Shown piece after piece: positions 3,210 to 60,057 of a stretch of 64,000 nucleotides of DNA. The translations under genes were made by a program, and so were the position numbers. Each line of letters starts with the position of its first letter. Position 1 is the first letter of the stretch. The DNA is from Candidatus Woesebacteria bacterium (GTDB taxonomy: Bacteria; Patescibacteriota; Microgenomatia; UBA1400; UBA1396): contig CAVVNJ010000003.1 of assembly GCA_963749595.1 (NCBI GenBank), positions 25,532 to 89,531 of the forward strand. Direction: 5' to 3'. The notes beneath the pieces are model-generated. The model saw nothing but the letters and a program-made list of their open reading frames with translations. It was not told where the DNA came from and made no database searches.

Positions 3210-3660
3210 ACATGAAGTTTAAGTTATTCGATCCGTCGTTGCCGCCACCGAAATACCAGACCAAGGGTGCGGTGGCTTTTGATTTGGCGGCCCGGGAAGA
3301 AACGATTATTCCGCCCGGAGAAGTCAAGTTGGTACCGCTTAAATATCGCGATCGAGTTGCCTCCGCGATCATTGGGCGCTGCTGGCGGCGCGGTCCTCGC
3401 TGCATAAAAAGGGCTTGATGCTGGCCAACGGGATCGGAGTGGGAGACGCGGATTATTGCGGCGATAACGACGAGTACCGCGCCGCGCTCTACAACCGGAC
3501 GGCATCAGCCGGTAACGGTGGAAAAAGGGGAGCGGGTAGTGCAGATGCTGATCTTGCCCTATGCTCGAGTCGATCTGGAGAGTGGTTGAACATCTGGGCA
3601 ATGCGATCGCGGCGGGTTTGGCAGCTACCGGCCGTTGAAGGTCAGACCTTCCAGAGGTGA
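3206..3660 (+). CDS. dut: dUTP diphosphatase, frameshifted
   Basis: MNMKFKLFDPSLPPPKYQTKGAVAFDLAAREETIIPPGEVKLVP, then in other frames LMLANGIGVGDADYCGDNDEYRAALYN and a ...VEHLGN tail. ATGA overlap with the dcd stop. Confidence 0.75.
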
Positions 3661-3690
3661 GTGCGTCCAAGGTTAGTCCCTCAAATTCCT
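3638..3690 (+). repeat. Gene-end repeat module, copy a: 13-bp palindrome AAGGTCAGACCTT + CCAGAGGTGA + GGTTAGTCCCTCAAATTCC
   Basis: aaggtcagaccttccagaggtga at 3638-3660 and ggttagtccctcaaattcc at 3671-3689. Related copies lie at 28306-28358 and 59991-60057. It supplies the last codons (GQTFQR*) and stop of the dut ORF. Confidence 0.7.
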
Positions 3691-18615: not shown

Positions 18616-18845
18616 TTAACTTTTTGCAGGATCGGATCCTGCAGCCGAGATAAAAAATAATCATTCTCGGCTAGAAAAATTATAGACGCCAGCATGCGTA
18701 TTTTCTTCGGCTATTAATTGGGTGAATGTTTGATACGATAAGCCCAGTTCTAATTCCCGGTGAGGGGACAAGTATCACCGCTCGCAAGAGTTGGTGATAC
18801 TTTGCTGTTACAATCTCAAAATTGCTTTTCCAGGCTAGGTGAATC

Positions 18846-18858
18846 AAGGTCTGACCTT
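18846..18858. promoter_or_regulatory. 13-bp palindrome AAGGTCTGACCTT in the -35 position of the promoter of the DHH gene
   Basis: The same palindrome (central base complemented) occurs at 3638-3650 and 28306-28318, and a variant AAGGTTAAACCTT at 60007-60019. Here it ends 7 nt before TATCAT (18866-18871). Confidence 0.5.
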
Positions 18859-19734: not shown

Positions 19735-19790
19735 GATCGTTAAAGAACAACTCTCCTGAGGATCGTCCCCATGTGGTACAATACGCCTCT

Positions 19791-26990: not shown

Positions 26991-28328
26991 ATGTCCGGTT
27001 TAGCGCCGCGTTTGCCCCCGCAGAACACCGAGGCCGAAGAGAGCGTGCTCGGATCATTACTTTTGGACAAGGACGCCATCATTCAGGTGGCTGATATTCT
27101 CCGGGCGGAACACTTTTACTTGCCCGGACACAAAGCAATTTACCAGGCGGCGACCGAACTTTATGAGGCCCGTGAGCCGATCGACTTGGTCACCATCACT
27201 AACCAGTTGCGCAAAAATAAAGCCCTTTCCCAGTCCGGCGGCGGTTCATATTTAACGCGCCTGACCACGGTGGTTCCCACCGCCGCGCACGCCAAACATT
27301 ACGCTCAGATCGTCAAGGGTATGTACACCAAACGCGAGGTGATCGCGATGTCCTCCGAACTGACCGAGAAATCTTTTGACACCGGGGTGGAACCGACAGA
27401 ACTCTTGGACGCGGCTGAGCAGCGGATCTTTACCTTGTCGCGCAGTCACGTGCGCGGCGGCTTCATTCCGATGAAGGATATTCTGGTGGATAGTTTTGAT
27501 CGGATCGAGGAGCTGCATAAAAATCAATCCGGAGTACGGGGCGTGGCCACCGGTTTTAATGATCTGGATAGCATGCTCAGCGGTTTGCAGAAGTCCAACT
27601 TGATTATTCTGGCCGCCCGTCCAGGCATGGGAAAAACCGCCTTATCCCTCAACATCGCTCAAAATGCGGCCGTGCTATTTAAAAAGAAGGTGGCCTTTTT
27701 CTCACTCGAAATGAGCAAGGAAGAGCTAATTGATCGTCTGGTTGTGGCACAAGCTGATATCGACGCCTGGAAACTAAAGACCGGTCGTTTGGGAGAAGAT
27801 GATTTTGCCCGGCTCTCGCACGCGATGGGCGTCCTCTATGAGGCTCAGATCTTCATTGACGACACGCCTGGATTGTCGCTGAACGAACTTCGCACCAAGG
27901 CCCGCCGCCTAATGATGGAGCATGAAATTGATTTATTTATCGTCGATTATTTGCAGCTGGTTCACGGCTATACCAAGGATAATCGGGTCCAAGAAGTGGG
28001 CGAGATTTCCCAGGGTTTGAAAAATATTGCCCGCGAGCTACAGGTGCCGGTATTGTCCCTGGCTCAGCTTTCCCGTGCCGTGGAAAGTCGGGGGACCAAA
28101 GAGCCGCAGCTTTCAGATTTGCGCGAATCGGGTTCTATCGAGCAGGATGCCGACGTAGTCTTGTTTATGTATCGGCCGGATGACGATATTCGCGAACAAA
28201 TGAAGCTGAAAATTGCCAAGCACCGCAATGGCGGGCTGGGGGACATTGATTTGTTCTTCCGGGGCGACCGCATCCGTTTCTACGGCATGGAAACGGCGCG
28301 CCCCAAAGGTCAGACCTTCCAGGCTTGA
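26991..28328 (+). CDS. dnaB: Replicative DNA helicase DnaB
   Basis: PPQNTEAEESVLGSLL, Walker A ARPGMGKTAL, FSLEMSKEEL, FIVDYLQL and LAQLSRAVESR. The last codons (GQTFQA*) come from gene-end repeat copy b. Confidence 0.95.
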   Translation: MSGLAPRLPPQNTEAEESVLGSLLLDKDAIIQVADILRAEHFYLPGHKAIYQAATELYEAREPIDLVTITNQLRKNKALSQSGGGSYLTRLTTVVPTAAHAKHYAQIVKGMYTKREVIAMSSELTEKSFDTGVEPTELLDAAEQRIFTLSRSHVRGGFIPMKDILVDSFDRIEELHKNQSGVRGVATGFNDLDSMLSGLQKSNLIILAARPGMGKTALSLNIAQNAAVLFKKKVAFFSLEMSKEELIDRLVVAQADIDAWKLKTGRLGEDDFARLSHAMGVLYEAQIFIDDTPGLSLNELRTKARRLMMEHEIDLFIVDYLQLVHGYTKDNRVQEVGEISQGLKNIARELQVPVLSLAQLSRAVESRGTKEPQLSDLRESGSIEQDADVVLFMYRPDDDIREQMKLKIAKHRNGGLGDIDLFFRGDRIRFYGMETARPKGQTFQA

Positions 28329-28358
28329 GGGGTACCCAGGGTCAGACCCTAAGTGATG
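28306..28358 (+). repeat. Gene-end repeat module, copy b
   Basis: aaggtcagaccttccaggcttga (28306-28328) plus cagggtcagaccctaagtga (28337-28356). It spans the stop codons of both convergent genes (dnaB and 28349-28591). Confidence 0.7.
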
Positions 28359-28607: not shown

Positions 28608-28693
28608 AGGAATCATTCCTACTCAACCCAACCTCAGGAGGAATCATTCCGGAATGATTCCTCCAGGCATGGGAGTAGGTAGGAATGATTCCT
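28608..28693. promoter_or_regulatory. Four copies of a 13-bp palindrome AGGAAT(C/G)ATTCCT upstream of the tRNA-Leu promoter
   Basis: Copies lie at 28608-28620, 28639-28651, 28650-28662 and 28681-28693. The two central copies form a perfect 28-bp palindrome (28637-28664). TATAAT at 28700-28705 is 12 nt before the tRNA 5' end. Confidence 0.6.
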
Positions 28694-28717: not shown

Positions 28718-28803
28718 GCCACGGTGGCGGAATCGGTAGACGCGCGGGACTCAAAATCCCGTTCTGTGCAAGCAGAGTGTGGGTTCAAGTCCCTCCCGTG
28801 GCA
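28718..28803 (+). tRNA. tRNA-Leu (anticodon CAA)
   Basis: The acceptor stem GCCACGG pairs with CCGTGGC, with discriminator A. The D-arm GCGGAATCGGTAGACGC is typical of tRNA-Leu. The anticodon stem-loop is cggga-CTCAAAA-tcccg, and there is a long variable arm and a T-loop TTCAAGT. One T-stem mismatch, and no encoded CCA. Confidence 0.85.
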
Positions 28804-28825
28804 CATTAATTTTCCGGACAAGTGT

Positions 28826-29272: not shown

Positions 29273-29285
29273 AAGGGCTGTTCCA

Positions 29286-29305
29286 TGTACTAGTATACTA
29301 GTACA
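29286..29305. promoter_or_regulatory. Perfect 20-bp palindrome TGTACTAGTATACTAGTACA in a 42-bp divergent intergenic region
   Basis: It lies between the starts at 29272 (-) and 29315 (+, lgt). A 19/20 copy with conserved flanks lies at 47739-47758. Confidence 0.6.
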
Positions 29306-29314
29306 AGAAAAAGT

Positions 29315-30106
29315 ATGTTTGCTAATTGGTGGTTGATATTAGTTTCCTGGGGACGAATCAGTTTCGGTTGGTTGTTTTTGGTCGTTGGTATCATCGGAGC
29401 CCTGTACTTTTTTTGGCGTAAGGCCGAAACCGAACATTATGACTTGTGGGCCGCTTTCGACTCGGTATTTGTTGCCTCCCTTGGGGGGATTGTCGGGGCC
29501 CGACTCGGTTATATCTTGCTTCATCCGTTGGAATTCGGTGTCTCACCGCTTAAATTGATTAACGTTTTGGCTTATCCCGGACTTTGGCCGGTTACTGGCT
29601 TCGTCGTAACCTTTTATACGCTTTACCGCTTTGCTACCCAGTCAAAAATCGATTGGTGGGAAGTGTGGGATTTCTTCGTTATCGCTGTGACCTGGTATTT
29701 GGGCTGGCATTGGCTCTCCCGGTTCGCTATCGGCGCGGCGGCGGGAACGTCAACTAAATTGCCTTGGGGAATGATGTTTCCTAATCGGTTAGAACCGGCC
29801 CATCCGGTGCAACTGTATGCCGCCGCCGCATACTTAGCCCTGTTTGCTTTTCTCAGCTGGGTGGAAACTCGGTATCGTTTTTTCTTTTGGTATCGCTCTA
29901 AAAAAAGAACCGCCAAGCCCGGATTTTTATTCTGCAGTTTTCTGATCGCCGTCGGAATTTTTCAGTTTGGCTTAAGCTTTGTCCAGCCGACCTTTTTTAT
30001 TTTGCCCGGCGGATTTGAGCTAAACCAAGCACTCGGGGTCTTGATCTTTGTGGCTGGCTGTGCGTTACTGTATCTGCGCTCGGGACGTTCAATCTTTTCC
30101 CGATAA
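29315..30106 (+). CDS. lgt: Prolipoprotein diacylglyceryl transferase
   Basis: GGIVGARLGYILLH, KLPWGMMFP and AHPVQLYAAAAY, with a polytopic membrane profile. The usual GRxGNF block is divergent. Confidence 0.75.
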   Translation: MFANWWLILVSWGRISFGWLFLVVGIIGALYFFWRKAETEHYDLWAAFDSVFVASLGGIVGARLGYILLHPLEFGVSPLKLINVLAYPGLWPVTGFVVTFYTLYRFATQSKIDWWEVWDFFVIAVTWYLGWHWLSRFAIGAAAGTSTKLPWGMMFPNRLEPAHPVQLYAAAAYLALFAFLSWVETRYRFFFWYRSKKRTAKPGFLFCSFLIAVGIFQFGLSFVQPTFFILPGGFELNQALGVLIFVAGCALLYLRSGRSIFSR

Positions 30107-30117: not shown

Positions 30118-30465
30118 ATGAGTCATTTGACCGCGGACCAAATTAATCGATTGCAGTCGATACTTGAGGAAAAGTTGACCGGGCTGCATGGCTTCAAGAC
30201 CAGCATGATCGAGGAAAATCCGATCAATAATCCTGATCGGGTCGAAGAGAACGAGGCTGGTGATGATGCCGTTGAGGAGTTTGGGATTCTAAATGCCGAA
30301 ACTCTGGAACAAGCCTCCGGCGACATGATTGATGAAGTTGAGGCGGCGTTGCTGCGGATTAAAGCCGGCACCTACGGCCATGATGAAATAACCGGCGAGC
30401 CGATTCCTTTCGAAAGACTGCTGGTTGTTCCCGAAGCGCGCACCGCCGCCCGCGACATGGCATGA
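30118..30465 (+). CDS. DksA/TraR-family-like protein lacking the zinc-finger cysteines
   Basis: An acidic coiled-coil region is followed by AALLRIKAGTYGHDEITGEPIPFERLLVVPEARTA, which is collinear with G.YG.Ce.CGe.I...RL...P.a..C but without Cys. Confidence 0.45.
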   Translation: MSHLTADQINRLQSILEEKLTGLHGFKTSMIEENPINNPDRVEENEAGDDAVEEFGILNAETLEQASGDMIDEVEAALLRIKAGTYGHDEITGEPIPFERLLVVPEARTAARDMA

Positions 30466-30902
30466 GGATCGTCCTATCCCGACTTCACGCCTGGAGGGAT
30501 CGTCCCGGGATCGTCCTCCTGGTATTGCTCGATCAGGCCAGCAAGCTATTTTTTCCCTATCAAATCAACCCAGGTGTCGCTTTTTCCTTGGGCAGCGGAT
30601 TGCCACCAGTATTGGTAACCTCGATCCTGATCGTCTTGGTCGGAGTTATATTTTGGCTTACCCGCTCGTGGCTAAACGACGGCCTATCTCGATTGGCTCG
30701 GTCATTTTTATTAGCCGGCGCACTTTCCAATCTTATTGATCGATTGTTTTTGGGAGGCGTTCGCGATGTCTGGAAGTTGCCGTTTCTAGGTGTGCAAAAT
30801 AACTTGGCTGACTGGTTGATCGTCATTGGCGCCGCTATATTCGGTTGGCAACAATACCGCACCTGGCGGGAAGTCGAGTCAGAGGATAAAATACCGGCAT
30901 GA
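30462..30902 (+). CDS. lspA: Lipoprotein signal peptidase (signal peptidase II)
   Basis: DQASKLFF, NPGVAFSLG and AGALSNLIDRLFLGGVRDV. The N-terminal codons are built from the GGATCGTCC repeat. Confidence 0.85.
   Translation: MRIVLSRLHAWRDRPGIVLLVLLDQASKLFFPYQINPGVAFSLGSGLPPVLVTSILIVLVGVIFWLTRSWLNDGLSRLARSFLLAGALSNLIDRLFLGGVRDVWKLPFLGVQNNLADWLIVIGAAIFGWQQYRTWREVESEDKIPA
30464..30517 (+). repeat. GGATCGTCC-repeat element, copy A (three direct 11-mers), at the 5' end of lspA
   Basis: The 11-mers are gaggatcgtcct (30464), gggatcgtccc (30496) and gggatcgtcct (30507). About 85% identical over ~47 nt to 31948-31994. Confidence 0.7.
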
Positions 30903-31708
30903 CAATTCTTTTTGAGGACGCTGATTTGTTGGTAATCAATAAAGATGCTGGGGAGGTAGTGAATCGGGCGGAGTCAATTCGCGTGCCAACTTTGCAGGAT
31001 TGGATAGAAGACTATCTTTCCGATGATCCTGTTTGGCAAGCTGGACGCCAACATGAGGAAGAGTTTCGGGACCGTTCGGGATTGGCGCACCGCATTGATA
31101 AAGACACCAGTGGTGTTTTGGTTTTCGCCAAGCATCCGGCAGCAATGCAGGAACTACTGCGACAATTTCGGGAACGTGAAGTTGACAAGACCTATCTGGC
31201 TTTAGTCCATGGGTTCCTGCCGACGAAGCAAGGGGTGGTTCAGGCGGCGATTGCCCGTCACCCGACGCGCCGGGAGCGTTTCACTGTAGTAACTGATGCC
31301 GGTCGGGAGAGCGCCACGGAGTTCAGGGTTAAAGAGGAGTTCGGGCCGATCGCCTTGGAAAAATTGCGCTCGGTTTTGCCGGAGGAGGGGAGGGGAAACG
31401 TTAAAGTCCTCCAGCAAGCGATTACTATCTACAACGGTTTTTCTCTGATTGAGCTTCAGCCGAGAACCGGCCGCACCCATCAAATTCGGGTCCACATGCA
31501 GTTTCTTGGTCATCCGCTGGTTGGTGATTACCGTTACACCGGGCGCCGCCGCTCGCAGGTTGACGCTTTGTGGTGTCCGCGTCAGTTTTTGCACGCCGCT
31601 ACCTTGACTTTGACCCATCCACGAACCAAAGAACGAATCACTTTTACGGCGCCGTTGGCGGAGGATTTGCGACAGGTGCTCACTTTGTTAACTAAATCAC
31701 TCGATTAG
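30899..31708 (+). CDS. rluD: RluA-family 23S rRNA pseudouridine synthase (RluD-like)
   Basis: HRIDKDTSGVLVFAK (catalytic Asp), KTYLALVHG and GRTHQIRVHM. Confidence 0.9.
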   Translation: MTILFEDADLLVINKDAGEVVNRAESIRVPTLQDWIEDYLSDDPVWQAGRQHEEEFRDRSGLAHRIDKDTSGVLVFAKHPAAMQELLRQFREREVDKTYLALVHGFLPTKQGVVQAAIARHPTRRERFTVVTDAGRESATEFRVKEEFGPIALEKLRSVLPEEGRGNVKVLQQAITIYNGFSLIELQPRTGRTHQIRVHMQFLGHPLVGDYRYTGRRRSQVDALWCPRQFLHAATLTLTHPRTKERITFTAPLAEDLRQVLTLLTKSLD

Positions 31709-32833
31709 CATCGCGTCGCCAAAACTGAAAAAACGATATTTTTCTTGGATCGCTTCGTGGTAGGCTTTTCCGATCGAGCTTGTCTGAAAATCGACGAACT
31801 TTTCCCCGGTCTGCGGCCAACTAGTGAAGGCTGAGACTAGCATCAACAAAGTTGATTCCGGTAGGTGGAAGTTGGTAATGAGCGCATCGGCGGCTCGAAA
31901 ACGGTAGGGGGGGTAAACGAACAAACTGGTTTCGCCGCTACCGGCTCGGGATCGTCCTCTGCCTTCCCCACGCCTGGGGGGATCGTCCCGGGACGATCCC
32001 TCTTGAGGTAGCGAAGGCAGAGGACGATCCTCAAAAGTTGATTCCAGAGTTCGGAGAGCAGTGGTGCCTACGGCGACGATTCGTCTGCCAGCCTCGCGAG
32101 CGGTGTTGATTTTCTTCGCCGCGGCGGGGCTAACCTCATACCACTCACTGTGCATCTGGTGTTGTTCGATTTCATTTTCCTTAACCGGCAGAAACGTGCC
32201 TAGGCCCACGTGCAAAGTAATCTCGACTGTCTCGATGCCCGTGGTTTTCAGTTGAGTCAATAGCTCTGGCGTAAAGTGCAGGCCGGCGGTTGGCGCGGCA
32301 GCCGAACCTGGCTCGTGGCCAAAGACGGTTTGGTAGCGTTCCGGATCGCCGACGAATTTTTTGATGTAGGGCGGGGTAGGCAAGGAGCCCAATTTGTCGA
32401 GAGCGGCCAACAACTCGGTTCCGGCCAGCGAAGTTCGGACTCGGCGGGTATAGCCCTCATCAACCAGACATTCGATGACTAGCTGATGATTCTCATTGAT
32501 AAATTCGACCTTTTGGCCAATCTTCAACCCGGGTTTAGTCAGCGCTTCCCAAACCTCTGAATACATTTCTTGTTCAATGCGCTTGGTCAGTAAAATTTCT
32601 ACCTCGCCACCCGTTGGTTTGCGACCGATCAGCCGAACCGGCAAGACGCGGGTGTTATTCAAAACCAGCAAGTCGCCGGGACGCAGCAGGGCGGGGAGAT
32701 CAAAAAAATGGTGGTGGGCAATTTGGCCAGTAGTCCGATCCAGCCTCAACAGCCGGCTGACGTCCCGGCGCGCCAGCGGCGTCTGGGCAATCAAATCGCT
32801 TGGTAGATCGTAGGAAAATCGTGATAGCTTCAC
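31697..32833 (-). CDS. queA: S-adenosylmethionine:tRNA ribosyltransferase-isomerase with an internal ~28-codon palindromic insertion
   Basis: VKLSRFSYDLPSDLIAQTPLARRD (GTG at 32833), HFTPELL and ALITNFHLPESTLLMLVSAF. The low-complexity insert is DRPLPSLPQEGSSRDDPPRRGEGRGRSRAGS. Confidence 0.9.
   Translation of the reverse strand: MKLSRFSYDLPSDLIAQTPLARRDVSRLLRLDRTTGQIAHHHFFDLPALLRPGDLLVLNNTRVLPVRLIGRKPTGGEVEILLTKRIEQEMYSEVWEALTKPGLKIGQKVEFINENHQLVIECLVDEGYTRRVRTSLAGTELLAALDKLGSLPTPPYIKKFVGDPERYQTVFGHEPGSAAAPTAGLHFTPELLTQLKTTGIETVEITLHVGLGTFLPVKENEIEQHQMHSEWYEVSPAAAKKINTAREAGRRIVAVGTTALRTLESTFEDRPLPSLPQEGSSRDDPPRRGEGRGRSRAGSGETSLFVYPPYRFRAADALITNFHLPESTLLMLVSAFTSWPQTGEKFVDFQTSSIGKAYHEAIQEKYRFFSFGDAMLIE
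31948..32031. repeat. GGATCGTCC-repeat element, copy B: nested palindrome inserted in frame in queA
   Basis: The outer 18-bp inverted repeat is ggatcgtcctctgccttc (31949-31966) with gaaggcagaggacgatcc (32013-32030). The inner perfect 22-bp palindrome is gggatcgtcccgggacgatccc (31979-32000). Confidence 0.8.
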
Positions 32834-32876: not shown

Positions 32877-33734
32877 GTGATTGATATGTTGAGATGGGGA
32901 TTAGGAGGCGAGAAGAGCAGAGAACCAACTCCGGCGGAGCGTCGCCAAAAGCGGGAGAAAATCGCCAAATTGATCGCGCAAGAGAGTCGGGGCGACAAGT
33001 TAAAAGCCTTTACCTTACTGGCTGCTCGGCTCCATTACCCCTTAAGTGAACGTCATCTTTTAGCGATCTTATTTTCCTTAAGCGAGCGTCTGGCGTCGCG
33101 AGTTCAGGATTTTTCGATTATCATCAGTGATGAGGCCAGCGGACGAATTCCTAGCCTGATTTTTCAAGAAGTTTTGAATCGAAAACGAAAGCAACTTGAT
33201 CTGTCGCCACTCATGATTTCTTTTTTGCTGGGCGGAAAGGTGAATAAGTTTCAAGCTGAGGCGGTTCACGATTTCGTGACTCACCCCCCAAAGTCTTTGA
33301 CCGACGATCTTAGTCGACCATTAATCGTGACCGAATATATGCACAGCGGCGACAGCATGAAAAATTTCTTGGAAGCATTCTATAAAAATGGAATTCAGCC
33401 GGTGGTGGCAGCGGTGAGTATCGATCGGAGAATAGCGGAGTATCAATCTCTATTCAGCAAAGATGAAGATCTCCAATCTGGGCACAAATCGTTAGAAGAT
33501 GTTCTCCTGATTGGTGATGACGCCAAAACCAGCAAAGCTTATGGAGCGGCCTTCCATGGCAGTCCTGATGTGACCGGTGTCATCCGGAGCAAGTCTGGCA
33601 AAAGTGCCCACCCGGTATTGTTGCGCCAGGCAGAGCCAACGCTCGATAAGGCGGGGGCTCAGGATAAAATTATCCAGTCTCGCGACGAGGCAGCGCTGGT
33701 GGCGGAAGTGTTTGCTAGACTGTTGAAGATATAG
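32877..33734 (+). CDS. PRT-fold (HGPRT-like) array paralog 1
   Basis: TPAERRQKREKIA; IIISDEASGRIPSL; FLLGG; LIVTEYMHSGDSM; VVAAVS; SAHP; EAALVAEVFARLLKI*. The start is GTG at 32877 or ATG at 32886. Confidence 0.8.
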   Translation: MIDMLRWGLGGEKSREPTPAERRQKREKIAKLIAQESRGDKLKAFTLLAARLHYPLSERHLLAILFSLSERLASRVQDFSIIISDEASGRIPSLIFQEVLNRKRKQLDLSPLMISFLLGGKVNKFQAEAVHDFVTHPPKSLTDDLSRPLIVTEYMHSGDSMKNFLEAFYKNGIQPVVAAVSIDRRIAEYQSLFSKDEDLQSGHKSLEDVLLIGDDAKTSKAYGAAFHGSPDVTGVIRSKSGKSAHPVLLRQAEPTLDKAGAQDKIIQSRDEAALVAEVFARLLKI

Positions 33735-33744
33735 GAAGGAATAA

Positions 33745-34578
33745 TTGGCCACAAGATCTCACGACATCCCAACTCCGGCCGAAAGACGTCAGGAACGGGA
33801 AAAAATTGCCCAAAAAATTGTGACCGAGAGTCGGGGTAATCAGCGCAAAGCCCTTAAATTACTGGCGGAACAACTTAGCCCCCCGCTGGGCCATTCTGAA
33901 CTTTTGGTTTCTTTGTTTGCCATGGCTGAGCGCTTGCTGCCGCGTTCCGGGGAATTTGAAATAATTGTCAGCGATGAAACTAGTGGTCGTATTCCCAGTT
34001 TAATTTTTCAAGATATTCTTAATCGCCAACGGTCCAAAATAAATAAGGACCCCTTGGTTATTTCTTTCTTACTTGGTGGCAGAATTAGTAAGGTTCAAGC
34101 TCGGGCGGTCCAGAATTTTGTGGCCATTCCGCCAAAGTCACTGGCCGAAAAGCTTCGCCAACCGTTAATTGTCACTGAATATGTCGACCGCGGCTTAAGT
34201 CTACAAGCCTTTCTAAACACTTTTTACCGACAAGGAATTAGTCCAGTCGTGGCAGCGGTAAGCGTTAGAGAGGACCCAGCATTCTACCGATTTATCTTTG
34301 AAAAAAATCCGAGTCAGCCTTCCGGAAAAAAAACGCTCAACGATTTATTTATCGTCGGCGATTCACTGGAACATGAAGGGGGCTGGGGTGTATTTTTTCG
34401 CGACAATCCACTCGGTAGTGGTGTGGTAAAAGGTGGTAAGGAAAAAAGTCCGCACCCAGCGTCGGTTCTCCAATCGACTGCGACGCTAAATAAAGAAGAA
34501 ATTCGAGCCAAAATAAAAAAGTCTCGCGACGAGGCAGCGCTGGTGGCGGAAGTATTTGCTAGACTTCTAAAATTGTAA
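33745..34578 (+). CDS. PRT-fold (HGPRT-like) array paralog 2
   Basis: TPAERRQEREKIA; IIVSDETSGRIPSL; FLLGG; LIVTEYVDRGLSL; VVAAVS; SPHP; EAALVAEVFARLLKL*. TTG start. Confidence 0.8.
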   Translation: MATRSHDIPTPAERRQEREKIAQKIVTESRGNQRKALKLLAEQLSPPLGHSELLVSLFAMAERLLPRSGEFEIIVSDETSGRIPSLIFQDILNRQRSKINKDPLVISFLLGGRISKVQARAVQNFVAIPPKSLAEKLRQPLIVTEYVDRGLSLQAFLNTFYRQGISPVVAAVSVREDPAFYRFIFEKNPSQPSGKKTLNDLFIVGDSLEHEGGWGVFFRDNPLGSGVVKGGKEKSPHPASVLQSTATLNKEEIRAKIKKSRDEAALVAEVFARLLKL

Positions 34579-34586
34579 GGAGAATA

Positions 34587-35387
34587 ATGCCTAAAACTCG
34601 ACCTATCGACCAATCGACTACAGCTGAAAAGCGCCGGATTAACGCGGAAAAAATCCTACAAATTGGCTCAGGTAATTGGGAGCGGACGCTGACCGAGCTA
34701 AAGACTAGTTTGAACCGACCGGAGTTGAAGAGTACCGGGATATTAGAAACGATGTTCGATCTTTGTGAAAAACTCCGCCCGATAGCAACTGATCTTGATG
34801 TGATCATTAGCGACGAAGCGAGTGGGCGGGTGCCGAGTCTCATTATTAAATCTACTCTTGATGCCTTTAGAGAACAGCAAGGTTTGCCCCCACTTAAAAT
34901 TTTTTTCCTCGTGGGAGGTTATTCTACTTTTGAACAAAAAGATTCTGTCGCCGAGTTTGTTCGCACGCACGCTGTAGAATTCCGCCGGAGCTTGATCGTG
35001 ACCGAAATAATCGAATCGGGCGAAAGTATACGCGAATTTCTCAAACCTTTTTCCCAGAATGGCCTGAAACCGATCGTGGCCAGCGTATCGGTTGCTCGTG
35101 ATCCTAGTACGTATCGTCAGTTGTTCTCCAATAAGCTGATTTATGGAGAGGTTGCTCGTGGTGGAGCCGGGCAGATATTTTACGGACTGGCTGGCCGCCG
35201 GATGGCAGGGATTGTTAAGGGGAGTCGATCGGTGGCCCATCCGGAGAGCTTAAAAGCCAGACTGAATGAGCCGACAATGAAAGCCGAAGCTCAGCGGGGA
35301 ATTCAACTAGCTCGTTCAGACATTGCCTTGATCGGTCAGGTTTACGCTGGCTTGTTAAGCGGAAAAGAAAGGCCAAAAAATGTTTAA
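34587..35387 (+). CDS. PRT-fold (HGPRT-like) array paralog 3
   Basis: TTAEKRRINAEKI; VIISDEASGRVPSL; FLVGG; LIVTEIIESGESI; IVASVS; VAHP; SDIALIGQVYAGLL. An SD aaggag is present. Confidence 0.8.
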   Translation: MPKTRPIDQSTTAEKRRINAEKILQIGSGNWERTLTELKTSLNRPELKSTGILETMFDLCEKLRPIATDLDVIISDEASGRVPSLIIKSTLDAFREQQGLPPLKIFFLVGGYSTFEQKDSVAEFVRTHAVEFRRSLIVTEIIESGESIREFLKPFSQNGLKPIVASVSVARDPSTYRQLFSNKLIYGEVARGGAGQIFYGLAGRRMAGIVKGSRSVAHPESLKARLNEPTMKAEAQRGIQLARSDIALIGQVYAGLLSGKERPKNV

Positions 35388-36165
35388 AAAAACTCGGCCC
35401 GTCGACGTCCAGTCTCCAGCTGATCGTCGACGAAACTTGGCGAAAATCATCACTCAGGGAAAAACTCCCGACGTTGCATTAAGACTAACCGCCGCGAAAG
35501 TACCGGATTCTCTTTTTAACAACCATGAACTTTTACAGGCAATCTATGGTCTTTGCGAAAAACTAGTGCCTCTGGCTAAAGAGATTGAGATAATTGTTGG
35601 CGACGATGCTAGCGGGCGGCTGCCAAGCTTACTGATAAAACACAGCTTGGATGCTGTGCGCCAAAAAATGGGTCTACCGCCTATACCGATTCGCTTTATC
35701 GCTTCGGGGAGGTCAACCGGTGAACAAACCGAGGCTGTTCGTCACTACTTGGAAGAGCATAAGTCTGAACTAGCGTCAGCGGTGATTGTAACCGAGTTTA
35801 TGAGCAGCGGGGAAAGTATGGCTGAGTTGGTAAGAATGTTCAGGGGGCTGGATTTAGAGCCGATCGTCGCGGCGGTGTCAATTGGTGGTGAGCCAGAGTT
35901 TTATCGGGAGAAGATACAGGCAAAAATCATTTATGGTCAGATCGGGCAAGCGGGCCTCGATTTTTACGGCTCTAAGAGTAGGCCATTTTCTGGTGTGAAT
36001 AAAAAAATGGGCGCGCGTGATAGTGCCCACTCCGAACCGACCAAAAAATATGAGGCAAAAACCAAGGAACAGCAAATTGATGTTCAGAGGACAATAAATG
36101 CGGCCCGCGATGATGTGGCTTTGGTGGGTGAGGTTTTCTCCAGGCTGTTGGCGAGGAGAAAATAG
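35380..36165 (+). CDS. PRT-fold (HGPRT-like) array paralog 4
   Basis: SPADRRRNLAKI; IIVGDDASGRLPSL; FIASG; VIVTEFMSSGESM; IVAAVS; DDVALVGEVFSRLL. Confidence 0.8.
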   Translation: MFKKTRPVDVQSPADRRRNLAKIITQGKTPDVALRLTAAKVPDSLFNNHELLQAIYGLCEKLVPLAKEIEIIVGDDASGRLPSLLIKHSLDAVRQKMGLPPIPIRFIASGRSTGEQTEAVRHYLEEHKSELASAVIVTEFMSSGESMAELVRMFRGLDLEPIVAAVSIGGEPEFYREKIQAKIIYGQIGQAGLDFYGSKSRPFSGVNKKMGARDSAHSEPTKKYEAKTKEQQIDVQRTINAARDDVALVGEVFSRLLARRK

Positions 36166-36184
36166 TTATTTACACTGGAGCCAA

Positions 36185-36943
36185 ATGAAATCAAGAACCA
36201 TCGATCAAAAAACTGTATCTGAGATTGTGATGCCTGGGGATAAAGACAAGATTTTGGAGGCTTTGGCCGGGCGCTTAAGAAGCAATTTCCAATCTATCGA
36301 AGTGCTCCAATCTTGTTATGAGCTTTGCGCTCAGTTGGCCCGAGATCCTGGCCGCTATGACACCATCATCAGCGATGATGCTAGTGGGCGATTAGTCAGC
36401 CTATTAGTCAAATCGGTTTTAGATCGAACACGGGAGAGAAAGGGGCTCAAGCCGCTGAATTTACGCTTTGTAGCCGGAGGAATCAACCGTTCCGATCAGA
36501 AAATAGCTATTCGAGAATATCTAGCAAAACATCATTCAGAATTTGGTCGGATCTTGTTAGTAACCGAAATTGTGGATACTGGAGATAGTATGCGCAATTT
36601 GCTACGACTTTTTGCTGATTTCAAATTAAGTCCTGATGTTGCCAGTGTCTCAATTGCAAAATTACCGGATAAATACCATGTCTTATTTTCGAACAAGCTA
36701 ATTTACGGAAGTCTTGGTTACGCTGGAGGCAATCTTTATGGTTTCGATTCCCGTCGGCAAGCGGGGGTAGATAAAAAGAGCACAGCGTCTTCCGCTCATC
36801 CGGCAAGTCTGAGAGCCACCGAGCTTAGGGGAGGCAACCAAAGAGTGGCACAACAAATACAATCAAGTGTTAATCAGACGAGGAAGGAGATCAATCTTAT
36901 CTCAGCTGTTTTTTTGCGCTTAATGGATTCAGAGAGAGTATGA
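36185..36943 (+). CDS. PRT-fold (HGPRT-like) array paralog 5
   Basis: TIISDDASGRLVSL; FVAGG; LLVTEIVDTGDSM (closest to the canonical PRPP loop); VASVS; SAHP. Start moved to the ATG at 36185, which has an SD. Confidence 0.8.
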   Translation: MKSRTIDQKTVSEIVMPGDKDKILEALAGRLRSNFQSIEVLQSCYELCAQLARDPGRYDTIISDDASGRLVSLLVKSVLDRTRERKGLKPLNLRFVAGGINRSDQKIAIREYLAKHHSEFGRILLVTEIVDTGDSMRNLLRLFADFKLSPDVASVSIAKLPDKYHVLFSNKLIYGSLGYAGGNLYGFDSRRQAGVDKKSTASSAHPASLRATELRGGNQRVAQQIQSSVNQTRKEINLISAVFLRLMDSERV

Positions 36944-37728
36944 GCCGTCGGACATCAGACCAATTACTGTCAGAATTTCACCCCTCAAAGGCGGATCAAA
37001 TTCGTCATAGTGCCGCACAAATTATTCAGGAGGTAGATGGAAGCAAAGAACAGACCCTGCTATTGCTAGCCGACCAACTCCATCATCCCTTAAATAGTGA
37101 GGCACTAATCACGGCGTTGTTTTCCTTAAGTGAGCAATTAGTACTTCAAGAAAAGGATTTTCAAATTCTGGTCGGTGATGAATCAAGCGGTCGTTTGCCA
37201 AGCTTACTAGTCAAAAAACTATTCGATTCCGTGCGAAGGAAGAGAAATTCACCCCCAATTCCGTTTATTCCACTGATCGGTGGCGGATTGAGGGGGGAAC
37301 AAAAAGCGGCTTTGGAAGATTATATTGCCCAGAATCGTGGGAAATTGCAGGGTGCTTTGATCGTGACGGAATACATCCAGTCCGGCGAGAGCATGCATGA
37401 TACTTTAAACATTTTTCGTCGGTATGATCTTCATCCCACTGTAGCGGCAATTTCAGCAGCGGCAGAAAGAGGTGCTTATCTGGGCTTGATTCCGAATAAA
37501 TTGGTACTCGGGAAAGATCAATCGAATGTAGGAGTTTATCTATGGAGCAAGGCTCGAGCGGCAGGTGTAGAGAAGCGGACTTCTGCTGGCCCGCACCCGG
37601 TGGCTCTAAAAAACAGAATCAGCGATCCGGATGAGCGACGGGAAATTCAGGAGAATATTAATCAGTCGCGGCGAGATATCGCTCTGATTGCCGAGGTGTT
37701 TGCCCAGCTGTTGGAACGAAAAAAATAG
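36940..37728 (+). CDS. PRT-fold (HGPRT-like) array paralog 6
   Basis: ILVGDESSGRLPSL; LIGGG; LIVTEYIQSGESM; TVAAIS; GPHP; RDIALIAEVFAQLL. ATGA overlap with paralog 5. Confidence 0.8.
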   Translation: MSRRTSDQLLSEFHPSKADQIRHSAAQIIQEVDGSKEQTLLLLADQLHHPLNSEALITALFSLSEQLVLQEKDFQILVGDESSGRLPSLLVKKLFDSVRRKRNSPPIPFIPLIGGGLRGEQKAALEDYIAQNRGKLQGALIVTEYIQSGESMHDTLNIFRRYDLHPTVAAISAAAERGAYLGLIPNKLVLGKDQSNVGVYLWSKARAAGVEKRTSAGPHPVALKNRISDPDERREIQENINQSRRDIALIAEVFAQLLERKK

Positions 37729-37740
37729 TACACTCGGGTT

Positions 37741-38610
37741 ATGAAAAAAATATCTCCTGACCAAATAGATACTATTTTTCAAGAGACCTCAGCTGATACC
37801 GCTGATGAGCGCAATGGAGCGGTTCTACTGAAATTATCTGAACATTTGAAAAGTAATCTTGACACTCCCGAAGTGTTATCAGCGTGCTATGAATTGTGCA
37901 AAAAATTAGCGGCTGATCCGGCAAAATACGATACCATCATCAGCGATGATGCCAGTGGCCGCTTGCCCAGTTTGTTGCTGAAAGAAATCTTAGATCAACT
38001 CCGAATCCGGCAAAATCTACCCCCCCTAAAGATCTGGTTTTTGTCCGCCGGTAGAAATCGATTAGAACAACGCGAGGCGATTGCCAAGTTCATTAATCAG
38101 CATCTTGACGATCTGCACCATGCCCTGATTGTTACCGAAATCGTTGATTCCGGCGAAAGCATGAAGAATTTCTCGCAAATATTCAAAAATTTTAGTTTGC
38201 TTCCTGATATCGCTAGTGTCTCTGCGGTCGTCGATCCCAGCTATTATCAGGGACTTTTTGTTAATCAATTGATTGTGGGTCAACAGGGCAGGGTTGGCGG
38301 GTATCTTCATGGCGAAGCGGCTCGATTCCAAGCAGGAGTGTCCAAGCAAGGCATGCGCCAACCCAGCGCTCATCCGCAATCTCTTCGCGAGGCGGCGCGT
38401 CCTGGGGATCGAGTGGATGTGCAAAGAGAAGTGAATCGTACGCGCCAAGAGATAGGCCTAATTGCTAAAGTATTTCTTAAGCTGTTAGAAATTGAGGAGA
38501 AGGAGGCAGGTGAAAACAAGGGTAGTGGATCAAACAAACAATCAGGAACGACCGGCAACCCAAGCCGAAGAATTGAGGATACAAGCGGAAACTATCATCG
38601 GAGAAAGTGA
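37741..38610 (+). CDS. PRT-fold (HGPRT-like) array paralog 7, with a ~40-aa C-terminal read-through overlapping paralog 8
   Basis: TIISDDASGRLPSL; FLSAG; LIVTEIVDSGESM; IASVS; SAHP; EIGLIAKVFLKLLE. It then continues for about 40 aa instead of stopping. Confidence 0.75.
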   Translation: MKKISPDQIDTIFQETSADTADERNGAVLLKLSEHLKSNLDTPEVLSACYELCKKLAADPAKYDTIISDDASGRLPSLLLKEILDQLRIRQNLPPLKIWFLSAGRNRLEQREAIAKFINQHLDDLHHALIVTEIVDSGESMKNFSQIFKNFSLLPDIASVSAVVDPSYYQGLFVNQLIVGQQGRVGGYLHGEAARFQAGVSKQGMRQPSAHPQSLREAARPGDRVDVQREVNRTRQEIGLIAKVFLKLLEIEEKEAGENKGSGSNKQSGTTGNPSRRIEDTSGNYHRRK

Positions 38611-39295
38611 GGGGGATGTAAAAAAAGCTCTGAAAGAGCTGGCCCAACAAGTCGACTCACCGTTAAATAAACCGGATTTGCTCGAAGCCATGTATTTATT
38701 GTGCGAGAAGCTGATTTCCCGGGTAGAAGAATTCTCGGTAATTATCAGCGACGAATCAAGCGGAAGGCTAGTTAGCTTGTTGGTAAAAAATCTGTTTGAC
38801 CGAAAGCGCTCATCGCCGGTGCCAATTACTTTTTTATTAGGCGGAAGGCTAGATTCGCCGCAGCGCAAGAACGTGATCGATTATCTGCGTCAACATCGAT
38901 CGAAATTGCAAAATGCTTTAATTGTTTCCGAATATCTTGAGTCGGGTGACAGCATGGCCGAGTTTTTGGCGGATTTTCGTTTGCAGAATCTGAAAGCCAA
39001 GGTAGCAGCGGTGTCCGCCATTGGAGTGGGCAATAGATATAGTCGATTATTTCCGGAAGAACTAATTGCCGGCAAGCTTTCTTCATCGGTTGGTATTTGG
39101 TTGCATGATGAATCTCTAGCCACTGGTGTTGACAAAAACTTTGCCGAGGGTCCATTTCCGAATCGGATTAAAGACGAAGACGAAACTTGGTCTCAACAGA
39201 AAAAAATAAGGATGCAGCACTCGGTTAATCAGGCTCGTCGGGACATTGCCTTGATTGCTGAAGTTTTTGCCCAGATGTTTGGACTACCGAGATGA
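38510..39295 (+). CDS. PRT-fold (HGPRT-like) array paralog 8
   Basis: GGAGG-cag-GTG start. VKTRVVDQTNNQERPATQAEELRIQAE; VIISDESSGRLVSL; FLLGG; LIVSEYLESGDSM; VAAVS; RDIALIAEVFAQMF. Confidence 0.8.
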   Translation: MKTRVVDQTNNQERPATQAEELRIQAETIIGESEGDVKKALKELAQQVDSPLNKPDLLEAMYLLCEKLISRVEEFSVIISDESSGRLVSLLVKNLFDRKRSSPVPITFLLGGRLDSPQRKNVIDYLRQHRSKLQNALIVSEYLESGDSMAEFLADFRLQNLKAKVAAVSAIGVGNRYSRLFPEELIAGKLSSSVGIWLHDESLATGVDKNFAEGPFPNRIKDEDETWSQQKKIRMQHSVNQARRDIALIAEVFAQMFGLPR

Positions 39296-39324
39296 TATAA
39301 ACTTGGCTGAGGAGGGGGAGGACA

Positions 39325-40116
39325 GTGAAAACAAGAGTAGTGGATCAGGTAACCAATCAGGAACGATCGGCAACCCGGGCCGAAGAATTGAAAATACAAG
39401 CGGAATCTATCATCGAAAGCAATAAAGGGTTATATAAATCAACCTTGAAGGAGTTGTCCAGACAGGTAAAGTTTCCACTAAATCAACCGGATTTGTTGGA
39501 CCCAATGTATTTGCTGTGCCGGAAGCTAATTCCCCGATCTGAGGAATTTAAGGTGATTGTTAGTGATGAGGGTAGTGGGCGACTGGTTAGTTTATTAGTC
39601 AAGGATCTGTTCGATCGTCGGCGCCTAGCTCCGATACCAATAACTTTTATACTCGGAGGAAGAATGACTCCTTCACAACGGAAGAAGGTGAGTGAACATT
39701 TTGCTCGGCACCGATCGGAATTAGATCACGCCTTAATTGTTTCCGAATATCTTGAATCTGGTAATAGCATGGCCAAATTTCTGGCCGACTTTCGCCAACA
39801 AAATTTGCAGGCAACGGTCGCTACCATCTCGGCTTTGGAATCGAGCGAAGAATATCGCCAATTATTTTCGGAAGAACTTATTGTCGGCCAATTACGTTCG
39901 AGCAGCGGTTTACAGTTGTATCGTGAGCCTGATGCCACTGGTGTTGAGAAGCGCTCTGCCGAAGGTCCGTTTCCAGATCGGATTAAGGATGAGGCCGAGT
40001 CTCTGACTAAGGCTGAAAAAATTAGCATCCAGCGTCCAATCAACCAAGCCCGCCGGGACATCGCTCTCATTGCAGAGGTGTTCGATAGATTATTAAAGAG
40101 CAACGAGGTTTCATGA
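39325..40116 (+). CDS. PRT-fold (HGPRT-like) array paralog 9
   Basis: GTG start after GGAGG. VKTRVVDQVTNQERSATRAEELKIQAE; VIVSDEGSGRLVSL; FILGG; LIVSEYLESGNSM; VATIS; RDIALIAEVFDRLL. It is the closest relative of paralog 8. Confidence 0.8.
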   Translation: MKTRVVDQVTNQERSATRAEELKIQAESIIESNKGLYKSTLKELSRQVKFPLNQPDLLDPMYLLCRKLIPRSEEFKVIVSDEGSGRLVSLLVKDLFDRRRLAPIPITFILGGRMTPSQRKKVSEHFARHRSELDHALIVSEYLESGNSMAKFLADFRQQNLQATVATISALESSEEYRQLFSEELIVGQLRSSSGLQLYREPDATGVEKRSAEGPFPDRIKDEAESLTKAEKISIQRPINQARRDIALIAEVFDRLLKSNEVS

Positions 40117-40907
40117 TGAAGTCACGACCGTTCGATACTCAATCTGATTCTCGTCAGCGTAAGGCTGAGGAAAGAGAGAAAATAGCCTCTGAAATAATCG
40201 ACCTTAACCAGGGAGACCTGGGACGAACTTGGGTTTCGTTAGCCGAAAAAGTTCATTTTCCTTTTGATAGCGAAAAATTGATCAGGGTAATGTTCCAATT
40301 AAGTGCGAAGCTAATTGCGCGCGAGTCGGAGTTTAAGAGGCTGATTAGCGATGAAGCGAGTGGTCGGTTGCCAAGTTTAATAATTAAGGATTTATTTGAC
40401 CGACGGCGGAAAGAGCGGGGGCAGGAAGAGATGCCATTATTATTCTTGTTGGGTGGAAGAATGCCAGATCAGCAGCATAGAGTGGTGCGGGAATACGTTT
40501 TAAAGCATCGGCATGAACTAGCGCAATCGCTGGTGGTTTCAGAATACATCGCTTCTGGTGAAAGCATGGCTTGGTTTTTAGATATTTTCCGGCAATTTGG
40601 TTTGGAGCCAGTGGTCTCCGCGGTTACTTGTCGCTATGGTCAGAAAGACTACAAAGTCCATTTTCCCAATGAGCTAATCGTTGGTGCCGACGATAGTACG
40701 ACCGGCCAGTATCTATGGAGTAAAGGATTAGCAACCGGAGTGGAAAAACCGCCAGAATCGGTGAAAAATCCTCCGCCTTTTCCGGAAGTTCGCAAAAATT
40801 ATCAGTGGTCGACTAGTTCCCGTGAGGCCCAGCAGGCCATATTGCGAGCGAGGGAAGACGTAGCCTTAATTTCGGAAGTATTTGCTCGATTGTTGAATAT
40901 TCAATAA
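40113..40907 (+). CDS. PRT-fold (HGPRT-like) array paralog 10
   Basis: RLISDEASGRLPSL; FLLGG; LVVSEYIASGESM; VVSAVT; EDVALISEVFARLL. ATGA overlap with paralog 9. Confidence 0.8.
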   Translation: MMKSRPFDTQSDSRQRKAEEREKIASEIIDLNQGDLGRTWVSLAEKVHFPFDSEKLIRVMFQLSAKLIARESEFKRLISDEASGRLPSLIIKDLFDRRRKERGQEEMPLLFLLGGRMPDQQHRVVREYVLKHRHELAQSLVVSEYIASGESMAWFLDIFRQFGLEPVVSAVTCRYGQKDYKVHFPNELIVGADDSTTGQYLWSKGLATGVEKPPESVKNPPPFPEVRKNYQWSTSSREAQQAILRAREDVALISEVFARLLNIQ

Positions 40908-40915
40908 GTTGACTT

Positions 40916-41785
40916 ATGCCAGGAAGAATTAATCGATTATCAAACGACGAAGGTGCCAGTGACTCAGCCGAAAAACGTCGCGAGTTAAAAGTACTAGCCG
41001 CCAAGATTCTTGCTGAGGGCGGACAAGATCGCGACCAGACTCTAAAATTGCTTGCCGAGAGTCTGAAGTCGCCACTGAGAGATTTTGGCTTGCTAAAGGC
41101 GCTATATTCATTAAGTCAACAACTATTACCACGATCGAATGATTTCGCAGTGATTGTCAGTGACGAAGCCAGTGGACGAATACCGAGTTTATTAGTTAAA
41201 GAGCTCTTTGATCGAGTGCGATTGAATCGGGGAGAGACCAAAATTCCAATCACTTTTTTGCTAGGTGGGTACACTCTACCTCAACAAAAGGCAAAGGTGG
41301 CAGATTTTGTTGCTGGACACAAAGGGGAGTTGGAACAGGCGCTAATCGTCTCGGAATTTATGATGTCCGGAGAAAGTATGGCAAATACTTTGGAAGATTT
41401 TCACCGACAGGGTTTGGATCCGACGGTAGCGGCAGTATCCACTTGGTACAAAAAGGGTGAATATAAACGTCTTGCTTCAGATAAATTAGTGATTGGGGTT
41501 GACGATGACAATATCGGCGCCACCAGATTGTGGGGGGAAACTACCTCCTCTGGAGTGGTTAAGCTCGAAACCTCGCCTGGGCCGCATCCGGAGTCGACAA
41601 AACTGGTGAAGAAGGGAAATGACCTGCACGATATGTCAGAGATTGACTTCGCGGAACCAGTTCAGAAAGACATCGCTTTGGCTAGGGGAGAGATTTATCT
41701 TGTGGCGGAGGTATTTTTTGGTATGCTAGCCTCGCCTCCCAAACAGTCTTGGCTTCAGCGTTTAAAAAATGGGGGGAAAGAATAA
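40916..41785 (+). CDS. PRT-fold (HGPRT-like) array paralog 11
   Basis: VIVSDEASGRIPSL; FLLGG; LIVSEFMMSGESM; TVAAVS; GPHP; GEIYLVAEVFFGML plus a short tail. Confidence 0.8.
   Translation: MPGRINRLSNDEGASDSAEKRRELKVLAAKILAEGGQDRDQTLKLLAESLKSPLRDFGLLKALYSLSQQLLPRSNDFAVIVSDEASGRIPSLLVKELFDRVRLNRGETKIPITFLLGGYTLPQQKAKVADFVAGHKGELEQALIVSEFMMSGESMANTLEDFHRQGLDPTVAAVSTWYKKGEYKRLASDKLVIGVDDDNIGATRLWGETTSSGVVKLETSPGPHPESTKLVKKGNDLHDMSEIDFAEPVQKDIALARGEIYLVAEVFFGMLASPPKQSWLQRLKNGGKE

Positions 41786-50577: not shown

Positions 50578-50585
<8 letters not shown>
50178..50585 (-). CDS. Hypothetical helical protein, paralog of the 49669-50127 product
   Basis: See 49669-50127. Its start overlaps the gyrA stop region. 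Confidence 0.55.
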
Positions 50586-59990: not shown

Positions 59991-60057
59991 CCAAGGTTCC
60001 CTGGCTAAGGTTAAACCTTCCAGAGGTGAAAAATACCTCGGTTAATCCCTAAGAACG
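59991..60057 (+). repeat. Gene-end repeat module, copy c
   Basis: ccaaggttccctgg + ctaaggttaaaccttccagaggtga (60005-60029) + ctcggttaatccctaagaacg (60037-60057), directly after the ATPase stop. Confidence 0.7.

Follow-up and report, generated by a model that had tools for sequence, protein, structure and literature searches.

A nested palindrome within queA of a Woesebacteria-like bacterium, a probable member of a family of short interspersed repeats

Introduction

An 82-nt nested palindrome lies within queA in a 64-kb stretch of DNA from a tiny-genome, Woesebacteria-like bacterium of the Candidate Phyla Radiation (CPR). The stretch is analyzed here as a whole and is referred to as the window; copies of the element in the source genome were counted inside it. 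A preceding sequence-only reading had taken the palindrome to be a dispersed mini-element, inserted in frame and with related copies in lspA and upstream of rpsU; the present work considers that proposal by comparison with orthologous genes, with related genomes and with known classes of bacterial repeats. The genomes of CPR bacteria (Patescibacteria) are small with densely packed genes, and odd insertions in their conserved genes are known, though to our knowledge the origin of these has seldom been traced. The source genome is described as very compact; its closest relatives are uncultured Woesebacteria-like CPR bacteria, with QueA proteins that are at most 70% identical, and DnaB proteins that are at most 89% identical, to those of the window.

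Results

The palindrome is located in a region of which the gene order, i.e. dnaB, tRNA-Leu, a gene for a 148-aa protein, lgt, a dksA-like gene, lspA and rluD, followed on the opposite strand by queA and tgt, is kept in six related genomes. The coordinates of the repeat copies and of the genes most closely associated with them are given in Table 1. The QueA protein of the window is 100% identical to database protein P0001, which is recorded once, from a 188,675-nt contig (NCBI/ENA), and all the window proteins that were checked are singletons in public collections. The start codon of queA is a GTG, 6 nt past TGTTATACT, and the start looks leaderless.

Table 1. Positions in the window of the repeat copies and of genes that carry or adjoin them
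Feature	Position	Strand	Remarks
Single unit, boxes AAGGTCAGACCTT + AAGGTTAGTCCCT	3638..3681	+	3' end of dUTPase-like gene
Solo box AAGGTCTGACCTT	18846..18858	+	4 nt upstream of TGGTATCAT, ahead of gene start near 18880
Solo box TGAGGATCGTCC	19758..19770	+	between stop codon of upstream gene and rpsU extended -10 TGGTACAAT
Single unit, boxes AAGGTCAGACCTT + AGGGTCAGACCCT	28306..28350	+	last six codons and stop of dnaB
86-nt head-to-head dimer, GGAATCATTCC boxes, nested palindrome	28608..28693	.	left arm beta, right arm alpha
tRNA-Leu(CAA)	28718..28804	+	downstream of 86-nt element
lspA coding sequence	30462..30902	+	146 aa; exact protein P0122 in public collections
lspA single unit with extra tandem box	30466..30516	+	codons 2-18 of lspA; best nhmmer match, E = 8e-9
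queA coding sequence	31697..32833	-	378 aa, intact, PF02547; element corresponds to residues ~268-295
queA dimer, 82 nt, head-to-head, nested palindrome	31949..32030	.	within queA
Single unit, boxes AAGGTTAAACCTT + GGTTAATCC	60007..60050	+	28 nt past stop of TraG/VirD4-like ATPase gene

The queA palindrome had been described as 84 nt long (31948-32031). The palindrome itself is confirmed, but its length is to be corrected to 82 nt, since the bases added at the two ends are not complementary. The arms are of 41 nt and have 7 mismatches, every one of which falls at arm positions 19-30; the two perfect repeats originally reported, an outer one of 18 bp (GGATCGTCCTCTGCCTTC and its complement) and an inner palindrome of 22 bp (GGGATCGTCCCGGGACGATCCC, 31979-32000), are both borne out. 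Four copies of a short box, GGATCGTCC, lie in the element, two in direct orientation (31949-57 and 31980-88) and two inverted (31991-99 and 32022-30); the spacer of the left pair contains a core termed alpha (CCCACGCCTGG), that of the right pair, read on the minus strand, a core termed beta (CTACCTCAAGAG). The element is predicted to form a hairpin, both as RNA (about -65 kcal/mol, z = -7.4) and as DNA (-32.5 kcal/mol, z = -5.9).

An alignment of 25 QueA sequences locates the additional residues between the GTTxxRTLES helix and the ETSLF strand. The net gain compared with the closest orthologues is 22 codons, equivalent to 66 nt; the in-frame nature of the addition, its location within queA, and the peptide quoted for it in the sequence-only reading all stand, whereas the estimate of about 28 added codons was too large. 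None of the 24 orthologues aligned carries the segment, which refutes an ancestral origin and, by this comparison, makes the segment a lineage-specific insertion. QueA from the window retains every residue that is invariant in the alignment, the QueA structures in the PDB (1YY3, 1VKY and 1WDI) align on both sides of the insert, and an AlphaFold model has a mean predicted local distance difference test score (pLDDT) of 87, with values of <50 only at residues 271-291, i.e. the core of the insert. From these observations, the insert is a lineage-specific, probably disordered loop in an otherwise normal enzyme, and its effect on QueA itself is probably neutral. Another of the orthologues, P0009, carries an insertion here that is unrelated to that of the window, and the loop is therefore one that tolerates insertions; in the closest orthologue a box-like sequence, GGATGGATCCGTC, is already present at the insertion point. 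The length of the element is not a multiple of three while the net gain is, and hence the in-frame state reflects selection on the outcome, rather than being a property of the element. There is, as judged from its reading frames, no sign that the element is adapted for coding, because only three of the six frames are open through the GC-rich queA copy and only two of the six through the copy near tRNA-Leu.

Repeat finding, together with a scan for spaced direct repeats, uncovered a family with eight units in the window; when these were made into a profile, nhmmer gave exactly eight matches (E 8e-9 to 5e-6), with none across the window beyond the units themselves. The unit, of about 40 nt, consists of two direct copies of a 9-13-nt dyad-symmetric box, 31-32 nt apart, flanking a spacer; the box core, GG-N5-7-CC, is often lengthened to AAGG...CCTT or GAGG...CCTC. 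When all eight units are aligned in one orientation, the order is a box, about 11 variable nucleotides, a conserved tag ending in CCTGGR or CCTCTGGR, and the second box. The window has three types of box and two types of spacer core. The alpha form of the tag, CA(C/T)GCCTGG, is that of the lspA copy, of the unit at 28306 and, in the two dimers, of the left arm at queA and the right arm near tRNA-Leu; the beta form, ACCTC(A/T)(A/G)G, is carried by the opposite arms of the two dimers (right at queA, left near tRNA-Leu) as well as by the units at 3638 and 60007. The boxes of the single units at 3638, 28306 and 60007 are of the GGTCAGACC or GGTTAAACC type. The proposal of a dispersed repeat is therefore upheld, but not its limitation to the GGATCGTCC-type motif, since GGAATCATTCC, GGTCAGACC and GGTTAAACC boxes share the same architecture.

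The two head-to-head dimers of the window (82-86 nt), both of which form hairpins, are each composed of one alpha and one beta unit. Because one arm is alpha and the other beta, the mismatches between arms cluster in the spacer cores, to which they are confined (P <= 1e-3 and 1e-4), and all the boxes are perfect. Given their shared alpha/beta composition, the dimers are, at the level of sequence, homologous over their full length, yet all four boxes differ between them. Analysis of dyad symmetry for 22 boxes, taken from the window and from relatives and found in part by palindrome search, gave 93% paired cells compared with 81% in shuffled sequences, and 19 double changes compared with 6.8; neither value was reached in any of 500 shuffles. 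The boxes are thus demonstrably constrained, insofar as pairing statistics reveal. Single units do not fold, as RNA or as DNA, any better than shuffled sequence (z -0.1 to -1.7), and in a comparison with Rfam only tRNA-Leu passes the gathering score, the elements themselves scoring at chance level (e.g. mir-3121, 22.7 bits compared with a threshold of 108).

The lspA copy has three direct GGATCGTCC boxes, at 30466, 30497 and 30508, arranged as box, 22-nt spacer with the alpha core CACGCCTGGAG, box, CG and box. Over 30466-30510 it matches the queA element (31949-31993) with 84% identity, in good agreement with the figure of about 85%, and the three direct 11-mers, that had been given for this segment. 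The ATG of lspA overlaps the TGA of an upstream dksA/traR-like gene (ATGA) and the unit starts directly after the overlap. The N-termini of LspA proteins from relatives are highly variable, with 13-35 residues ahead of the DQ motif, making a replacement of N-terminal codons by the unit plausible. The solo copy reported upstream of the rpsU -10 region is likewise present: its GGATCGTCC (19760-19768) is followed, at a distance of 5 nt, by TGGTACAAT and then by rpsU. All three copies, at lspA, rpsU and queA, open with the 12-mer TGAGGATCGTCC. Overall, GGATCGTCC occurs 9 times in the window, compared with 0.43 expected and with no instance of 9 in 100 shuffles: the queA element accounts for four copies and the lspA start for three, in direct orientation, the remaining two being that ahead of rpsU and another at 29033. 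The last was considered as a family member and rejected; it codes for G-R-S-D in the conserved 148-aa protein and is best taken as a chance occurrence, being ordinary coding sequence without an insertion or deletion relative to seven orthologues.

With respect to the other copies, the 86-nt dimer is placed precisely between the -10 boxes of two divergent promoters near tRNA-Leu, i.e. TATAGT for a membrane-protein gene on the minus strand and TGGTATAAT for the tRNA; both promoters look leaderless, as does the start of the gene next to the AAGGTCTGACCTT box. The three single units outside lspA are at gene 3' ends (at, or no more than 28 nt from, the ends of the genes) and the solo boxes, at rpsU and at the gene starting near 18880, are 4-8 nt upstream of -10 hexamers. 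The possibility that the tag acts as the -35 element of a portable promoter was considered and rejected, as the hexamers at the -35 position are not conserved.

Comparisons were made with relatives (denoted here by L numbers) in which QueA is 58-70% identical to that of the window; L121 and L122 are identical over their overlap, as are L123 and L124, so that neither pair carries presence/absence information. At several orthologous sites the element is absent or reduced. The tRNA-Leu site of L131 is without it, the -10 boxes of the divergent promoters being about 12 nt apart, and the rpsU promoter of L132 is without the box and about 14 nt shorter at that position. The 3' end of dnaB has a single box in L121, where the window has box-spacer-box, and no box in L123, L131 or L132. 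Elements of related design occur elsewhere, at non-orthologous positions. In L130, a palindrome of 81 nt (15917-15997) contains four GGTTAAACC boxes, and its ends, CACCTCTGGGA and TCCCAGAGGTG, show homology to the unit at 60007 of the window; in L121, queA and rluD are separated by an element with three GGGTCAGACCC boxes (11096-11142), and there is also a 90-nt palindrome with GAGATCCGATCTC ends (4885-4974); and L128 has two sites with a tag plus box within 4 kb, one of them at a contig end. The arrangement of a box upstream of a -10 hexamer recurs, with other box sequences, at tRNA-Leu in L121 and at rluD in L128, and lspA of L123 has GGGATCGACC near its start. No family elements were detected in L123, L127 or L129. 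Such a patchy, non-orthologous distribution is the pattern that expanding repeats produce.

Broader searches did not extend the family. A contig scan with the pattern GGATCGTCC-N20-24-GGATCGTCC gave at least 120 loci; none of those listed has the spacer, and all are either tandem repeats in coding sequence or matches that arose by chance in GC-rich genomes; a scan of metagenome contigs with a longer pattern gave two matches, both by chance, and scans of viral contigs for the element gave none.

As a separate observation, L132 has a perfect hairpin rich in GC, CTGGTACGCGGCGGCG...CGCCGCCGCGTACCAG (5143-5180), in the region upstream of a promoter that corresponds by orthology to the site of the solo box at window position 18846.

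Discussion

The comparisons establish, at the level of the DNA sequences, that these repeats have been copied between loci and that the queA copy is an in-frame insertion. The interpretation that we favor, with a probability of roughly 0.6, is that the palindrome in queA represents one member of a repeat family that is lineage-specific and made up of short, interspersed palindromes, resembling the repetitive extragenic palindromic (REP) sequences and their composite forms, i.e. bacterial interspersed mosaic elements (BIMEs) and REP doublets forming hairpins (REPINs), or the MITEs (miniature transposable elements with inverted repeats).

The REP/BIME/REPIN group is the closest known class. Like the family described here, it has short units with a conserved unpaired tag beside a small hairpin, head-to-head dimers that fold into larger hairpins (of which there are two here), locations at gene 3' ends with a stop codon sometimes supplied, occasional in-frame copies of 20-30 residues, and no target-site duplication. 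REP sequences have been defined as 20-40-bp imperfect palindromes with a stem of 8-9 bp, a loop of 4-5 nt and an unpaired GTAG or CGTC at one end; REPs that donate stop codons are documented, and intragenic REP dimers coding for 20-30 residues are known in several phyla (Di Nocera et al. 2013, PMC3733652). By contrast, the present family is without a terminal GTAG or CGTC tag, its hairpin box is shorter (stems of 4-7 bp) and is present twice per unit as direct repeats about 31 nt apart, and its box sequence varies among subfamilies while the tag is conserved. The host belongs to the CPR/Patescibacteria, and no REP-associated tyrosine transposase (RAYT) was seen among the approximately 40 open reading frames (ORFs) of the window that were scanned.

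The Rickettsia palindromic elements (RPEs), to which the sequence-only reading had likened the queA insertion, are the classic in-frame case (Ogata et al. 2000, 2002, as cited in PMC10969869). The parallel is fair as an analogy; in-frame insertion of palindromic repeats is not peculiar to Rickettsia, however, as the intragenic REP dimers of several phyla illustrate (PMC3733652). The RPEs, as described, are likewise palindromic repeats found in frame in housekeeping genes, at positions compatible with the protein fold, with other copies being intergenic; they are longer (about 100-150 bp) and give rise to a conserved peptide in many genes, whereas the 64 kb seen here contain, comparing by description, a single coding copy inside a gene and another at an N-terminus, which are read in different frames. 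The host phylum is also not the same. MITEs such as Correia/NEMIS, ERIC, RUP and BOX resemble the family in being small and dispersed, with terminal inverted repeats, effects on promoters and occasional in-frame fusions, the last of which have been noted in reviews (PMC10969869); they differ in that the family has a modular four-box architecture and no target-site duplication, and no parent insertion sequence with matching ends is present in the window. The nested imperfect palindromes, four boxes and conserved asymmetry of the arms are also reminiscent of integron attC sites, but the analogy is a structural one only, as the R'' (RYYYAAC) and R' (GTTRRRY) cores are absent, the ends here being GGATCGTCC, GGAATCATTCC or GGTCAGACC, and there is neither an integron integrase nor a cassette context. 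Because the family departs from REPs in tag and stem, and from MITEs in target duplication, it is best treated as a variant of the general kind and not assigned to a named family. Full-text searches of one library found no account of such repeats in CPR bacteria.

If the repeat-family interpretation is correct, copies would have spread at the DNA level to new sites by a route that leaves no target duplication. It may be that a trans-acting, structure-specific enzyme encoded elsewhere in the genome is responsible, or that template-switching during replication, at box-like microhomologies, is sufficient; the presence of GGATGGATCCGTC at the insertion point in the closest QueA orthologue is a hint that copies enter at box-like sequences, by either means. 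In such a compact genome, copies may persist only where tolerated, i.e. at gene 3' ends, in promoter spacers just upstream of -10 hexamers and in disordered parts of proteins. At queA, a copy would have landed in a variable surface loop and simply been translated, adding a net 22 disordered residues, and at lspA a copy would have taken the place of the N-terminal codons. Consequences for expression can be envisaged, in that the 41-bp RNA stem could make the queA mRNA accessible to double-strand-specific RNases and promoter-adjacent copies could change promoter spacers. No benefit of the element for the host is apparent from the sequence evidence.

Several observations weigh against this interpretation. 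There are no target-site duplications, the flanks of the queA element, the tRNA-Leu element and the single units sharing no direct repeat outside the boxes, and the aligned units have no terminal GTAG or CGTC tag, with CGTC being found solely inside the box of one subfamily; hence none of the known routes of mobilization is supported. No transposase, RAYT or IS200-like gene was identified in the Pfam scan of about 40 window ORFs, the sole recombinase among them being XerC/D-like and also present in relatives. The queA and lspA copies are merely 1.4 kb apart, which is also compatible with local copying, and six box copies lie 4-8 nt upstream of -10 hexamers, such that a function related to promoters, instead of neutral tolerance, is possible. 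The count of covarying changes in the boxes is biased by the way in which the boxes were in part collected, and examination of the source genome covered 64 kb only. The idea that the boxes are target sequence, duplicated on either side of an insert of 22 nt, was considered and does not serve as a general account, because the lspA, queA and rpsU copies share the 12-mer and because the outer boxes of the dimers are inverted and not direct.

The location of boxes near promoters raises the question of whether they are binding sites for a dimeric DNA-binding protein, the arrays acting as operators or nucleoid-organizing sites and the queA and lspA copies being incidental, or else intragenic regulators. 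The spacing of the four boxes (31, 11 and 31 nt) would place them roughly on one face of the helix; their dyad symmetry is kept through compensatory changes, they are perfectly conserved while the spacers diverge, and, within promoter spacers, they closely precede the -10 hexamers of rpsU, of the gene near 18880, of the two promoters that flank the tRNA-Leu element and, in relatives, of L121 tRNA-Leu and L128 rluD. However, one small genome has at least three box sequences, and orthologous promoters in relatives have a different box or none, a combination that a single regulator cannot explain; indeed, the orthologous tRNA-Leu (L131) and rpsU (L132) promoters work box-free. Further, an operator would have no evident role at the gene 3' ends where three units are found, or in the protein loop that contains another. 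A regulatory function is thus considered quite improbable. A purely local origin, which we regard as unlikely, would have the elements be non-mobile products of template-switching or slippage at pre-existing short palindromes (quasi-palindrome conversion and tandem duplication of boxes), with the similarity of lspA and queA reflecting one local copying event over the short distance between them (1.4 kb). The box-like sequences at the QueA insertion point (GGATGGATCCGTC) and near the L123 lspA start (GGGATCGACC), the existence of tandem box-CG-box duplications, the single box at the L121 dnaB end compared with two in the window, and the lack of both target-site duplications and a transposase in the window, are all consistent with such a process. 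It does not readily account for the recurrence of the alpha and beta cores, with different boxes, 25-56 kb apart and in other genomes, which requires copying between distant loci, or for the finding that both dimers are alpha/beta, instead of the perfect inversions expected of self-templating.

An assembly or sequencing artefact, e.g. a fold-back chimera, was also considered for this metagenome-assembled genome, in which gyrA, dut and the topA region look frameshifted, suggesting an error-prone assembly, and the window proteins checked are singletons. Nevertheless, the imperfection of the arms is patterned, queA keeps its reading frame, another element, at 28608, repeats the architecture with different boxes, and homologous elements are found in independent assemblies of other species. 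In addition, in an independent Logan assembly of run ERR12037366, compared at the level of proteins and frames, the lspA and rluD proteins are identical and the queA frame is open throughout the region. We therefore consider an artefactual palindrome to be very improbable indeed.

A more far-reaching possibility, which we put forward as speculative and rather improbable, is that the repeats represent a new class of structured DNA repeat in CPR bacteria, in which the alpha/beta tags are the element proper and the boxes are interchangeable handles for recombination or template switching. It is suggested by two features: from one subfamily to another all four boxes of a dimer are altered together, with no loss of the asymmetric cores, and insertions lie at pre-existing box-like sequences. 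If true, it would imply spread through microhomology or hairpins without a transposase, or else a new structure-specific recombinase system, and routine remodeling of promoters and protein loops in ultra-small genomes. Returning to the favored interpretation, one insertion in a conserved CPR gene can here be traced to a concrete family of DNA repeats that is also found in promoter spacers and at gene ends; should the family be abundant genome-wide, it would supply a mechanism by which protein loops gain insertions and promoters turn over in these lineages. It would also widen the range of REP- and MITE-like elements by an unusual architecture, in which four short hairpin boxes are combined with two conserved tags and target duplication is absent.

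Other Features of the Window

Between queA and tgt, at 32877-42580, there is a tandem array of about eleven paralogous genes, coding for proteins of 260-290 aa with shared motifs such as SDE.SGR.PSL; the single member that was scanned is without a Pfam match. The relatives examined all have queA and tgt side by side or with one gene between them, so that the array is a lineage-specific expansion.

Two further sets of repeats were noted. Copies of a palindromic TTCCATGTACTAGTATACTAGTACA, 81-90% identical to one another, are present at 29281-29317 and 47734-47770, in each case directly upstream of an ATG (that of lgt and that of another gene), and the motif looks like a shared operator. A segment of about 630 bp (57148-57780), between imperfect inverted repeats of about 61 nt (GCTTCACGAGTTTGGGGATCTATATCCTCCC...) and with a small ORF (57402-57595), lies between gyrB and the TraG/VirD4-like ATPase gene; one end is repeated, as a partial copy, at 10575-10634, and the segment may be a separate mobile element. 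Just after proS, a perfect 19-nt palindrome, TGCAGGATCGGATCCTGCA (18625-18643), precedes a second hairpin; the core of this palindrome, GATCGGATC, corresponds to the type of box seen in L121.

The essential genes gyrA (50578-53230) and dut (3206-3660), and those of the topA region (1288-3200), are split into several overlapping ORFs in different frames, which suggests either indel errors in the assembly or pseudogenes. Lastly, many genes of the window appear, by their upstream motifs, to be leaderless, with an extended -10 sequence (TGnTAnnAT) 6-8 nt upstream of the start and no Shine-Dalgarno sequence, as is the case at 18863, 19774, 28697, 32848 (minus strand) and 22397 (minus strand).

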